From Bacteroidales bacterium (GTDB lineage Bacteria > Bacteroidota > Bacteroidia > Bacteroidales > P3): a stretch of 64,000 bases of DNA. Shown piece by piece: positions 19,830-42,308 of the stretch. Position 1 is the stretch's first letter. Each line of letters opens with the position of its first letter. Under the pieces are notes generated by a model. The model did no database searches. It was not told the origin of the DNA and was given only the letters and a program-made list of their open reading frames with translations. The position numbers were made by a program, and so were the translations under genes. Where the stretch lies: NCBI GenBank assembly GCA_017480785.1, contig JAFURZ010000005.1:16259-80258 (forward strand). Direction: 5' to 3'.

Positions 19830-22800
19830 ATGATTATGAATCAAGCAATTACCCCCCCCCCATGCCGATTTGTCGCCATTGAAATCCTGAAAAGGACCGC
19901 AAAAAGGGTGTGCCTGCTGGCCGCCATGCTTATCGGCGTCACAGGGCTTCGTGCCCAGACCCACATTACCGACGTGTCGGGTTTCGACGCCCTCAACGGC
20001 AGCAGCGCCGCCTTCATCATCGACAACGACATCGACGCCTCCTCCCTCGCCACCATTGCCTCCTTCGGCGGCACCCTCGAGGCCGCCATCGACCCTGAGA
20101 CCCACATGCCCTACCGCCTCTCAGGCCTCTCCCACCCCCTCTTCGAGACCCTCACCGGCACCGTCTGCAACCTGGTGCTCGAGGATGTCGGCATCAGCCA
20201 CACTGGCAACACCGGCGCCATCGCCTGCACGGCCTCCGGTGCGGCCCGCATCTACAATGTGGGCATCCTCGGCGGCTCTGTCGGCGGCACGGGCTACACC
20301 GGCGGCCTCGTCGGCCTGCTCGACGGCACGGCCCGCGTGATTAACTGCTACTCCTTCGCCGACATCGTGGGCGGCACGGAAAAGGCCGGCATCGTGGGCT
20401 ACAACAACTACGCCTCCCTCTACAACGACCTCAAGACGATGGTCATGAACTGCATGTTCTATGGCGACATCGCCGAGGGTGGCACCATTGCACCGGTCTA
20501 CGGCGGACTGGAGATAAGCAACGACTACAACAACTCCAACACCAAGCGCCTCAACAACTATAACTATTTTCTCTACGAAGCCTCCTTCAGTGCAGGCCGC
20601 CACATCACGAATTACAACTGTGCGCTGGCCGCCGAGGAGCGCTTCCTCGTCCGGTTCGAGTTCTACCGCCACCTGCTCAACTCCACGCGCGAGATGGCCG
20701 GCTGGTACGTCTACGGCTCCATCCAGGCCGATGCCCACAGCAAGATGCTCAAGTGGGTGCTCGACCCCGCCGTCGCCCGATACCCCGTGCTGAAGGAGCA
20801 AGGCAAGTACCCCTCGGTGGTCAACTACGACCCCGACTACACCTTCGACCCCGTGACCTCCAGCCGGGTGAGTCGCACCGCCGTCACCGAGCCCTACCGC
20901 GGCCGCCACCTCGGCACCCTCACCGTCAACATCGCCAACGCCAAGAGCCAAGGCAAGCAGGACTGGCCGGCCGGCGCCACCGTCAACACCACCTCGCTCA
21001 CCCTCGCCCGCACAGACATGGACGAGCCAAACTACAATTTCAACTACGACAAGGTGCAGCTGCCCTACTACAACGACGTGGGTACGGGCAACTACACGGG
21101 TAACCGTGTGGTCACGGGATGGATTGTCACCGCCGTCACGGGTGGCACGCAGGGCGAGCGCGTGGCCGCCGACTTCACCACCACCACCAATTATGACGCG
21201 CCCTACTACAACTTCGCCGACCGCGACACCTACGCCAAGGACCTCTACTCCATCAGCGGCCGCATCTTCGCCCAGGGAGCCTACTTCAACGTCCCCACCG
21301 GCGTCACCGCCATCACCATCGAGCCCTACTGGGCCGTGTGCACCTACCTCTCCGACGCATACTACGACAGCTATGGCTACATGGATGGCGGCACCAACGA
21401 CACCTACGGCCTGCGCTATACCAACAACAATAACTACACCATAAACGGCAGCTCCCAGAAGGTGTACACCGACGTGGGCAACGCGGTATCCAATCTGACA
21501 GGCGTCACCTCACCCACCGTCTACGACTATGCCGTGGTACTGGTGGGCAACCACCACAGATGCGGCACCTCGGAGCCCTCGGACGGAAACACTCCCTTCA
21601 CCCTCATGTCCATCGACAACAACCGCGACAACGAGCCCGACTACTCGTTCGTTTTCAAGAGCGGCAAAAACCAGAAATGCTCCCCCATACGCTACGACTT
21701 CATCAACATCCCGGCGGCATCCATGGCCCACAAGATGGCGTCGAGCACCGACCTCGCCATCCCGGGCAACGCATTCTACAAAGAATGGATGGAGGTCACC
21801 ACCACAGCCCTCATCCGTTTCGGACAGCTGGAGTACAGTAACAGTAACACTTCGCTGTCGCCCATGATTCTTATGGGTGGCGTGGTGGAACAAATAGTGT
21901 CAAGCAACGATGGAGATACCAACACCGACAAAAGGCGCTACCTCCTCTTCGGCGACAATGTGTGGTTCAAACGGTTTGCCAACGGCATACACGGCGACAA
22001 GACAGGTTCGACTCCCCACCGCCCCATCTCCGTGACAGGAGGCGAATACCTGCGGTTCTACCTCACCGGCTATTTCCGTCCCGACGCAGCTGCCAGCACC
22101 GACAACGCCGAGTGCTACATCGACGGGGGCCGCTTCGGCGACGTGGCAGGGGCCGGACAGGAGAACATCTCCGGCAACGTAAACTGGTTTGTCAACCATG
22201 CCGACATCGAGAACTTCTATGGCGGCGGCATCAAGTCAAGCAACACCAGCCAGATTGCAGGCAACATCACCACAGACATCAGGAACAGCCGCGTAACCCT
22301 TTTCTGCGGCGGACCCATGTTCGGCGACATGGTGGCCGACAAGACCGTCACCACCACCGCCGACCACTGCACCTTCGGCACCTATTTCGGCGCCGGCTAC
22401 GGCGGCAACTCCATCTACCTCAACCGAGTCCAGAACGAATACCAGCACCTGAACGAAAACTGGAACAACTGGATGGGCAATTCCTACGACAACGCCGGCG
22501 GCGGCAACTACCGCGGCAAATACTCCGGCAACGGCATCGCCATCGGCTACGAGTACGAGTTCTTCGCCGGCTCCAGCGGCAACGTAGCGCGCCTCTACAT
22601 CCACAAAGTCTCCTTCTCGCTGGCGAAGTGCAACGACGTCAACTCCACCCTGACGGGCTGCAAGGTGCTTGGCAACTACTACGGCGGCGGCAGCCTCGGA
22701 AAGGTGGTGGGCACCGCGACCTCGGAGCTGACCAGCGACACCGTGCTGGGCAACGTCTTCGGCGCGGGGTTCTCGGTCTCGTTGCCCGACGTGGAAGTGC

Positions 22801-29431: not shown

Positions 29432-30174
29432 TCACCCTTTCACCTCGACTTTCTGGATGGGATGGCCGGCCACCTTGACGTAATAGAATCCAGCACCAGG
29501 CATGCGCATCACCACGCGCGGTTCGTCCCCTCCAGTACTCACAATATGCCCCATGGGATCGTAGACCTCGACTGGTAACACATCGGCACCCGTCACGATA
29601 ATTTGCAGCCCGTCGACAGCGACCGACACCTCCTGCACCTCCTCCTTGTCAGCCTTGTGAACACGCCGTCGCACCGCGTCTACAGCGACATTCCCAACAA
29701 TGTCGAAACGGGTCAACACCAGGCCCTCGGGCAGCATGCCTCCCGTGCAAACAATCTCCACACAAATATTCCGTCCACTGAAATGACTTAAATCGACACT
29801 GACATGTTCCTCGGCATGGCACACTGCAAGAGCCGCCACAAGCCATTCCAGCACGCCATCGCTACATCGCACACGCAGGGCATAGTGCAACGGAGAGTTG
29901 ACAGGAAGATTGTTGGAATAGTGAAGACCCAAATGTAGCGACATCTGCGAGCCAGTGGGAATACTGAACCATGGACTAATCAGCCGGTCGCCGTACTCGC
30001 AGAGGGTCAGGGCCGCGCCCCTCGCGACATCACGACTGTCGCCATAGCGCCAGCCACGAGGTGACAACCTGTCGTAACAGTACAATATTTTACCCCCCCC
30101 ACAACCTGCGCGGTTGCCGAAAGCGGGAGAAAAGACAGTAGTACCGCCACAAGATATATTTGCCTCAGGTTCAA
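29432..30174 (-). pseudogene. T9SS cargo protein (choice-of-anchor-J-like domain + C-terminal sorting domain), frameshifted at a G8 tract; phase-variation candidate
   Basis: The main ORF 29432..30199 has no signal peptide. The neighbouring frame (ORF 30007..30246) encodes MNLRQIYLVAVLLSFLPLSATAQ from TTG 30174. The two frames meet at C8 (+ strand, 30093-30100). The body has DRLISPWFSIPTGSQMSLHL and a CTD ending GFYYVKVAGHPIQKVEVKG. Confidence 0.55.
30093..30100 (-). repeat. G8 (C8 on + strand) homopolymer tract at the frameshift site of the T9SS cargo gene
   Basis: The signal-peptide frame and the body frame meet here. G9 (or G6) would fuse them. Confidence 0.85.
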
Positions 30175-30210: not shown

Positions 30211-30279
30211 CAAAAGTACAACATTTTCAACAAATAGGCAAAACAATTGTCTCCATCTGGAAAAAAAGTTGTAATTTTG
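30211..30279. promoter_or_regulatory. Back-to-back promoters (T9SS cargo gene leftward, yigZ-like rightward)
   Basis: Leftward TActTTTG is the complement of 30211-30218; rightward TAatTTTG is at 30272-30279, 5 nt before ATG 30285. Confidence 0.6.
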
Positions 30280-30284
30280 CAGTC

Positions 30285-30887: not shown

Positions 30888-31077
30888 ACCCTCGGAAAAT
30901 ACATCGTGCGCGATGTAATTAGACATTCTCCACCCCTCTCCACCCCCGGGGCCCTCCCGCCTCCCTCCGACCCGCCCCCTCCCCGTCGGATGCGCCCCAA
31001 TTCCCTCATACAGCTACAACCACTTGATTATCAGCATCTATATAACCAAAATACATTTAAACCGCAGAAAATCAGCA

Positions 31078-41523: not shown

Positions 41524-42308
41524 TTATTCAATCATTTCAACGGTTCTTCCAGACGAAAAGCACTCAAGTGTATTGGGTTCTCCTGTATTGAAATAACACG
41601 GAGATGCAGAAACCATCATGGTAAAAAAACCTATTTTCTTCACCTCACATCTCGTGATATAAAATTTGTTTCTAATCTTTTTCCATTGAGGATTGTCTAT
41701 ATTATTTGAAAAAGTAAGGATGTGTTCACACATAAGATCTTCTTTACTGTATACTCCTTTTTTTCTCTCTAGAGAGTACCTAGAGGGTCTTGTCATTCGG
41801 AAGAACTTGACGTTACTTCTTGAATGAGGAGGGATTCCAACAAAACGTTCTTCTGTGGTCTGAACAAACGTGCCTGATGTAGAAGTTTCCCCCATGTTTA
41901 CACCATTTGCTACGGTTTGAGTTATTGGTCCAGCGCCTACGGCTCTTGTCACCGCACCGGCATTCACATTCATACTCCTGCTTTGGATATTCGTTGTTGT
42001 GACGACAGCATTATTATATATTTTGATAGCGTTTCCATAATTAGTTCCAAGTTCGTTATGTGAAATAAAAAAGGATTCCCCCAGATCAATATATAACATG
42101 CTGTCCGTCTCATTATAAACAAACAATGAACCATCTACATCATATTCTAACCGAATACCTTCATCTGAAATGGAGACTTCCATTCGAGATTGGTTGTCAG
42201 GTTTACATTCAGAATTAACACAGCGAACAGTGTAGGTTAGTCGGTTTACCGGCACGCATGATGTAAAAAGTGTAATTGCTAGGGTAGCAACAAAAAAGTT
42301 TTTTTCAT
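41524..42308 (-). pseudogene. Hypothetical lipoprotein gene, start codon out of frame at an A7/T6 tract; phase-variation candidate (AT-rich islet)
   Basis: The body ORF 41524..42255 is listed from GTG. Upstream, ATG 42308 reads MKKTFLLLP-stop. One extra A (A8) or T (T7) would give MKK(N/T)FFVATLAITLFTSC VPVNRL..., a canonical lipoprotein signal fused to the body. GC content is far below the flanks. No domain recognised. Confidence 0.5.
42292..42305 (-). repeat. A7-C-T6 tract immediately after the ATG of the lipoprotein gene
   Basis: Minus strand reads atg aaaaaaa c tttttt g. A +1 change in either run restores the lipoprotein signal peptide frame. Confidence 0.85.

Follow-up and report, generated by a model that had tools for sequence, protein, structure and literature searches.

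Why does a gene for a putative secreted protein change its reading frame exactly at a run of eight G residues, directly behind the signal peptide? We met this arrangement in the assembly (2.25 Mb in 19 contigs) of an uncultured rumen Bacteroidales bacterium. An original prediction, made from the DNA letters alone, had offered three options for it: a contingency locus in its OFF state, a recent pseudogene, or an error in the homopolymer length. The window, i.e. the whole stretch of 64,000 nucleotides analysed here, corresponds to C14:16259-80258 of the assembly (genome label G000), and coordinates given below without a contig number are those of the window. As argued in the following, the G8 run is probably a slipped-strand (SSR) phase-variation switch, which is OFF in this assembly.

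A putative signal peptide, MNLRQIYLVAVLLSFLPLSATAQ, begins on the minus strand with TTG 30174. From this codon (30174-30172) the leader frame translates as MNLRQIYLVAVLLSFLPLSATAQVVGGVKYC..., reads MNLRQIYLVAVLLSFLPLSATAQVVGG up to the G run, and meets a stop at 30007 after 55 codons. The run itself is an uninterrupted G8, GGGGGGGG (30093-30100, minus strand), with ...GCGCAGGTTGT before it and TAAAATATTG after it. Another frame stays open between 30199 and the stop at 29432; it reads ...GCGGGKILYCYDR... across the run and then continues as a body of 222 codons without interruption. The signal peptide and the body are thus divided at G8, as originally described, and either the gain of one G (G9) or the loss of two (G6) fuses them by simple arithmetic; the former was borne out by natural G9 copies, which translate to a single 247-aa ORF. 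The frame assignment needed correction, as the body of the G8 sequence, previously placed in the +1 frame, is in -1 (= +2) with respect to the leader. The features of the locus are as follows.

30239..30242, minus strand: TTTG upstream of the -7 box with 20 nt in between, a candidate -33 element read from the sequence
30211..30218, minus strand: -7 box TACTTTTG (TAnnTTTG), 36 nt upstream of the TTG
30172..30174, minus strand: TTG start codon; the protein starting here aligns at its N-terminus with the signal peptides of two homologs, P0004 and P0006
30109..30174, minus strand: signal peptide region, residues 1-22 (MNLRQIYLVAVLLSFLPLSATA), predicted cleavage before Q23
30093..30100, minus strand: G8 homopolymer, the proposed switch, encoding Gly26-Gly28 when G9
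30007..30174, minus strand: OFF product, a 55-codon ORF (signal peptide, 32 out-of-frame residues and a stop)
29693..30094, minus strand: predicted N-terminal all-beta jelly-roll-like domain, residues ~28-161 of the 247-aa form
29441..29626, minus strand: predicted C-terminal seven-strand beta domain, residues ~184-245, a putative divergent T9SS type-A sorting domain
29432..29434, minus strand: stop codon of the body ORF

Bacteroides promoters follow the consensus TTTG-N19-21-TAnnTTTG. The TTTG at 30239..30242, spaced by 20 nt from TACTTTTG, fits this -33/-7 type and is a candidate promoter, from which a leader of ~30 nt would precede the TTG; the -7 box (30218-30211) had already been judged to lie at a sensible distance upstream. 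No in-frame ATG was found downstream of the -7 box. The leader peptide shows the typical n-h-c pattern with ATA before Q and can be aligned with the corresponding leaders of the homologs; the predicted cleavage, which leaves Gln at +1, was assigned by inspection. An Impact_N/YigZ gene, starting at 30282, diverges from the target gene, and a gene for a GH29 fucosidase converges on its 3' end.

Tract length in assemblies of the same strain

Further copies of the gene were fetched from public contigs of several samples by looking up a 101-aa C-terminal stub (P0003). The tract is G8 in the window and in four other contigs (L017, L018, L019 and L021), and G9 in L015/L020 and L016. These seven observations, window included, thus divide into five of G8 and two of G9, a count to be read with the facts that most same-strain assemblies share one sample series, that the independence of all seven is uncertain, and that assemblers retain the majority path only. 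One contig terminates in an Illumina adapter remnant, indicating short-read assemblies.

The G9 copies carry an uninterrupted ORF for a 247-aa precursor. Within the gene, the G run is the sole variable column of a 920-nt alignment of six copies, and no other stop or frameshift was found over 740 nt in the seven copies. The comparison extends well beyond the gene: L020 differs from the window at one position in 20,306 nt, the tract base, and all 19 other homopolymers of at least 6 nt in those 20.3 kb, C10 and A8 included, are unchanged. Between L021 and the window there are 0 differences over 16,191 nt. A SNP at 30948 (C/G) occurs with the tract in all four combinations (C with G8, C with G9, G with G8 and G with G9), so that the tract either changed its length at least twice or was recombined. 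The further lesions and lost expression signals that mark a pseudogene were not seen, as the promoter boxes, the start codon and the signal peptide are intact, and TACTTTTG is unchanged in all independent assemblies. The comparison of same-strain assemblies that had been proposed as a check thus returned both tract lengths in an otherwise intact gene, and among the three options it favours the OFF-state contingency locus.

The events at the locus can be pictured as follows. The tract occupies codons 26-28 of a gene for a putative exported protein composed of a signal peptide, a jelly-roll domain, a linker and a T9SS-type CTD. If the tract is G9, translation from TTG 30174 would produce the 247-aa precursor (ON), which would then enter Sec export, be cleaved before Gln23 and pass to the T9SS for display or release. 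If the tract is G8, the ribosome would exit the signal peptide in the wrong frame and stop after 55 codons, so that the gene would be OFF. Slippage of the polymerase during replication, adding or removing a G, would generate a clonal population with both ON and OFF cells. A switching rate, reversibility within one population, export or surface display, and ligand binding are what we infer beyond the alleles themselves.

The encoded protein and its homologs

The body matched no family in Pfam, and its single match in NCBIfam was TIGR04183 at 14.4-14.6 bits (E = 0.023-0.027), under the 23-bit cut-off; two homologs score 17.0 and 18.6 bits with the same model. When the C-terminal domain of the three homologs was compared by HHalign with 24 canonical CTDs of the genome, the probability was 92% (E = 5.7e-7). 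The C-terminal domain of the target also has matches at the C-terminal ends of large proteins from genomes of the same genus. The genome carries T9SS machinery, including PorU (NF033707, 885 bits) and GldM/PorM (above cut-off), and ~45 of its ORFs exceed the TIGR04183 cut-off. The T9SS CTD claimed at the outset thus falls short by HMM (14.4 against 23 bits) and stands by profile-profile comparison and predicted fold, which makes T9SS cargo a reasonable functional reading of formally incomplete membership.

An AlphaFold model built from a shallow alignment (mean pLDDT 61, ~65-70 in the N-terminal beta domain) predicts an N-terminal helix (residues 3-19, in the leader), an all-beta region (28-161), a disordered linker (163-181) and a seven-strand domain (184-245). 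Foldseek returned jelly-roll modules for this model, namely CBM4/22/36, MAM, the Lys-gingipain K3 cleaved-adhesin domain and Eph ligand-binding domains, at a target-side TM of ~0.5; these matches support a binding-type fold only. No catalytic domain was found in the target. The label 'choice-of-anchor-J-like', earlier attached to the N-terminal domain, had to be dropped, as neither Pfam nor NCBIfam gave a choice-of-anchor J match for this domain in the target, P0004 or P0006 at E up to 10; what is left is a generic resemblance to the jelly-roll fold.

An exhaustive HMMER search of 1.84 billion representatives recovered the stub P0003 and three other proteins only: P0004 (251 aa, 37% identical over almost the whole body), P0006 (357 aa) and P0005, which matches in the C-terminal domain alone. 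The target, P0004 and P0006 have in common a signal peptide ending in Q, the motif GDR(L/I)(V/I)(S/T)PWF in the N-terminal beta domain and a conserved C-terminus. No ortholog was found in 24 same-genus and 16 further genus/order genomes beyond CTD-only matches, nor any match of the target in a word-indexed search of 5.8 billion proteins. The window's own genome left out, exact-flank DNA patterns were absent from genome and metagenome contigs, and a profile scan of species-representative genomes likewise returned nothing. With no genus ortholog and two distant homologs only, the target gene could be dispensable. The gene for P0004 is intact and syntenic, lying between Impact_N and ribD (locus L013), and it has GGGG only in place of the tract, which indicates that the switch is lineage-specific.

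GC3 of the target ORF (29432-30174, minus strand) is 0.62 against 0.85-0.89 in the neighbouring genes, and its codon score is near zero, yet its frame is the best of six. The intact homolog and other tract-bearing surface genes share the reduced GC3, which we read as a trait of accessory surface genes. The low GC3 and weak codon bias account for the truncated gene calls in public records, where the locus appears as the 101-aa stub and a spurious 44-aa antisense ORF even in the G9 contigs that are in frame.

Long G/C runs across the genome

A G8 run alone is not rare, as 4 matches were seen in the window (59% GC) against 4.3 expected after dinucleotide shuffling. What is non-random is the position of the tract at the junction of the signal peptide and the mature protein, together with the genome-wide distribution of run lengths. 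The numbers of G/C runs in the genome are as follows.

Length 5: 2664
Length 6: 315
Length 7: 29
Length 8: 23
Length 9: 8
Length 10: 4
Length 13: 2

Runs of at least 8 nt were seen 37 times against ~3 from a geometric extrapolation and 5-11 when simulated with a 5th-order Markov model. Runs of 7 nt (29 seen, 38-60 simulated) are depleted, if anything; the genome thus avoids medium G/C runs yet retains long ones. Many of the runs of at least 8 nt are located at or near the 5' ends of genes for exported proteins, and the conserved cytoplasmic genes that contain G8 or C8 (dprA, a TerC-family gene and a response regulator) are in frame. Some loci need +1 to restore the frame and others -1, which speaks against systematic under-calling. 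A fusion test, in which a long open frame on either side of a run was tried as a gauge of indel errors, gave no information, since neighbouring genes produce a 5.5% background at randomly chosen positions. By order-wide counts of G9 windows, the genome (26, against 10 or fewer in most genomes) is tract-rich, albeit not unique; some high counts elsewhere look like contig-end artefacts, and hence no taxonomic conclusion is drawn from them.

Independent contigs covering other tracts were reached through neighbouring genes used as exact-match handles. The clearest cases belong to a paralogous lipoprotein family, in which poly-C follows right after the first codons, within the lipoprotein signal peptide. 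Three members are out of frame in this genome: C17:17521 (C8), C17:166341 (C9) and C10:18449 (C10). At C17:166341, where the poly-C comes after MKFKLL, contig L057 has C8 against C9 in the genome, together with three distant SNPs over 9.6 kb, and the gene is called there at full length as a 557-aa lipoprotein. Products with identical bodies occur in the OFF form (525 aa) on five contigs and in the ON form (557 aa, MKFKLLPPPCFWAVALIGGALMVSC...) on three, and both states are also present in a second lineage (~93% identical). At C10:18449, the C9 of L066 and L067 against C10 in the genome is the sole difference over 9.7 and 7.6 kb, respectively, and products with identical bodies are OFF (516 aa) on four contigs and ON (551 aa, ...MKYNILPPPTWVAALILFSLALAGC...) on another four. 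In sample SAMN15829987, C10:18449 is ON and C17:166341 is OFF, and tract states at different loci assort independently between samples. Overall, ~186 kb of pairwise comparison yielded five indel observations (in L020, L016, L057, L066 and L067) and about six SNPs; all five indels fall within three tracts, those of the target, C17:166341 and C10:18449. Only three of ~11 examined tracts have been seen to vary.

Three further exported proteins, all large, are split internally at G9/C9, namely a T9SS-CTD protein at C12:72952, an outer-membrane barrel ending in RWRF at C10:14748, and a repeat protein (235 + 895 aa) at C7:56924. Intact relatives of the first read VGFRGGIQAGD straight across the site, and a fused form of 619 aa of the second exists in a related lineage. 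No length variation was found among two to five copies at C10:14748, C17:17521, C7:56924, C12:72952, the C10 at window position 19852 and the G13 of C16:89894, nor among a few copies at C10:12735 and the A7-C-T6 sequence at 42292. In another species (genome G055, locus L040), a homolog of the lipoprotein family is likewise out of frame, with C12 at the corresponding codon position. This family, recognisable by the motif LVAEGFG..KAAVDG, is much expanded in the genus, with up to ~23 matches per genome (loci L022-L051).

Several other runs were observed along the way. In the window, a C10 at 19852-19861 (plus strand) separates the only ATGs (19830/19836) from the signal peptide of a repeat-rich surface protein of 1131 aa; this run keeps the frame, and the independent assembly L020 carries it at an unchanged length. 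At 42292-42308 (minus strand), a lipoprotein gene starts with ATG-A7-C-T6 and translates as MKKTFLLLP followed by a stop, where one additional A or T would give MKKNFFVATLAITLFTSC fused to a 243-aa body; the sequence is identical in L068 and L069, indicating a stable frameshift rather than assembly noise. Three long G/C runs occur within 6 kb at C10:12735-18458, located upstream of an OmpA-family gene, inside the outer-membrane barrel gene and in a lipoprotein signal peptide, and this cluster adjoins a polysaccharide-export locus and BamA/OmpH genes. A gene for a D12-class adenine methyltransferase (DLFGGSG, weak PF02086) carries an in-frame G13 (C16:89894-89906) close to its 5' end; immediately upstream of this gene are an 84-aa ORF and a reverse-transcriptase gene (weak RVT_1). 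The G13 is where two public contigs end. It is possible that the methyltransferase is phase-variable, perhaps beside a retroelement.

Long runs are also attached to repeated elements. A REP-like palindrome, CCCCTCTCCGATTGGAGAGGGG, is joined to G8 at C8:60085, C17:136395 and C1:152341, and one copy of this unit lies in frame inside an ORF with a metallo-beta-lactamase fold. The G8 at C5:21647 and the C10 at C15:12399 belong to inverted copies of one intergenic repeat, and run length therefore differs between paralogous copies. A further, conserved element, ATAAC(C/T)C(G/A)CTGA(T/C)T(T/A)TTA followed by C8-C13, is found 110-450 nt upstream of genes for small lipoproteins and exported proteins (C1:171553, C15:46225, C4:256123 and C17:2467; loci L026 and L027), and in other species of the genus with differing C-run lengths. 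A short leader ORF (M..HNxLIFTPPP) crosses this element.

Competing readings and known systems

The coexistence of G8 and G9 copies could be imagined to arise from errors of short-read sequencing or assembly at a homopolymer with a single true length. Long G runs are indeed harder for Illumina chemistry, and the broken contigs at G13 fit such a difficulty, but we regard an artefact as very unlikely. All other compared homopolymers agree between assemblies (C10, G13, three G9/C9 runs, the G8 of dprA and all A/T runs), each state recurs (target, G8 five times and G9 twice; C17:166341, 5 against 3; C10:18449, 4 against 4), and the repair of the frame by +1 or -1 depending on the locus argues against a uniform bias in base calling. 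Even if samples were mixed, a consensus that differs between samples would be population heterogeneity itself. Another way to dispose of the switch is to suppose that the G8 allele is expressed after all, through -1 ribosomal frameshifting or transcriptional slippage. The body does lie in the -1 frame, G GGG GGG fits the slippery pattern X XXY YYZ, and slippage of RNA polymerase on long homopolymers is known from other bacteria. Nevertheless, the locus gave no Rfam match beyond one chance-level miRNA hit, a G9 allele at the DNA level makes recoding unnecessary, and the relation of the frames is opposite at other loci. Recoding is thus a highly improbable explanation of the split gene, while it is possible as a source of leakiness of the G8 allele.

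The last alternative takes the tract as merely mutable and the gene as dispensable, drifting to loss through ON and OFF forms of no adaptive or regulatory role. Its weak codon bias and low GC3, the lack of an ortholog in the genus and in species-representative genomes with two distant homologs only, and OFF as the commoner state would all suit this scenario, as would the three internally split genes, which seem fixed OFF in every copy seen. On the other hand, a drifting gene is hard to reconcile with 740 nt free of a second lesion in 7/7 copies, with an intact promoter, start codon and signal peptide, and with the conservation of the motifs common to the homologs; the low GC3 is found in other surface genes and in the intact homolog as well. 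Furthermore, the genome purges G/C runs of 6-7 nt while keeping those of at least 8 nt, many of them near the 5' ends of exported genes, and the tract site is conserved, with differing lengths, across paralogs and species. We thus judge simple drift unlikely. The proposed phase-variation switch, by comparison, has several of the features that characterise contingency loci: (i) a simple repeat within the ORF (G8 at codons 26-28), (ii) a change of repeat number that toggles the frame (55 codons or 247 aa), (iii) a tract length that differs recurrently between otherwise identical clones, and (iv) a multi-locus repertoire, with C17:166341 and C10:18449 varying likewise.

Among known systems, pilC (poly-G) and opa (CTCTT) of Neisseria resemble the locus in having the repeat in the codons for the leader or the start of the mature part of an exported surface protein, where a one-unit change shifts the frame and turns translation ON or OFF with the promoter unchanged. 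Neisseria belongs to another phylum, and the product here is a putative T9SS-type cargo rather than a pilus-tip adhesin or an Opa beta-barrel. The genome encodes MutS1 and MutL, and mismatch repair is present in Neisseria too; this makes Neisseria and Haemophilus closer parallels than Campylobacter. Campylobacter jejuni has ~20-30 tracts of G8-G13 per genome, in genes for surface structures. The present genome is comparable in its many 8-13-nt G/C runs, its small size, the location of many runs in or beside surface or secreted genes and the independent assortment of ON/OFF states between samples. C. jejuni differs in being devoid of MutS1/MutL and in switching glycan-modifying enzymes, whereas the genes concerned here are those for lipoproteins, T9SS cargo and an outer-membrane barrel. 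Invertible promoters and shufflons of Bacteroides (capsules, SusC/SusD, restriction-modification) share the order and the stochastic ON/OFF outcome at the surface, albeit with inversion by an invertase in place of replication slippage in a homopolymer. As for the product, type-A CTD cargo (TIGR04183; adhesin modules of the Porphyromonas gingivalis gingipain family) offers parallels in the Gln after the predicted cleavage site, the binding-type beta-sandwich domain and the ~65-residue C-terminal beta-sandwich related to the genome's own CTDs; in contrast to the P. gingivalis cargo, the CTD here scores below the curated threshold, and the protein is very small and one-domain with no catalytic domain found.

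The mechanism itself is classical, and the value of the present case lies in three loci with natural ON and OFF alleles on identical or nearly identical backgrounds. In a limited literature search, the only switches described for Bacteroides and its relatives were based on invertases or recombination, with no homopolymer-mediated phase variation reported from Bacteroidales, and a 2025 review mentions only the invertase type for Bacteroides phase variation (PMC11868660). We see about an even chance that a multi-locus poly-G/C 'phasome' of the Campylobacter kind operates in this lineage, and probably elsewhere in the order, despite mismatch repair. Such a phasome, proposed with the same balance of doubt, would take in T9SS cargo, the lipoprotein family, the outer-membrane barrel, the poly-C leader element and the G13 methyltransferase, the last as a possible phasevarion.

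Phase variation in gut and rumen Bacteroidales is now described almost wholly as DNA inversion. If slippage switches genes for secreted proteins and lipoproteins, the heterogeneity of surface antigens and phage receptors would exceed what inversion-based tools detect, and annotators would be mislabelling switchable genes as pseudogenes or fragments, as with the 101-aa stub here. Tract lengths in metagenomes could then serve as a natural record of the selection acting on the surface proteins of uncultured bacteria. If the phasome is genuine, the Bacteroidota would have a second general system of phase variation beside invertases, with combinatorial ON/OFF 'phasotypes' readable straight from metagenomes.
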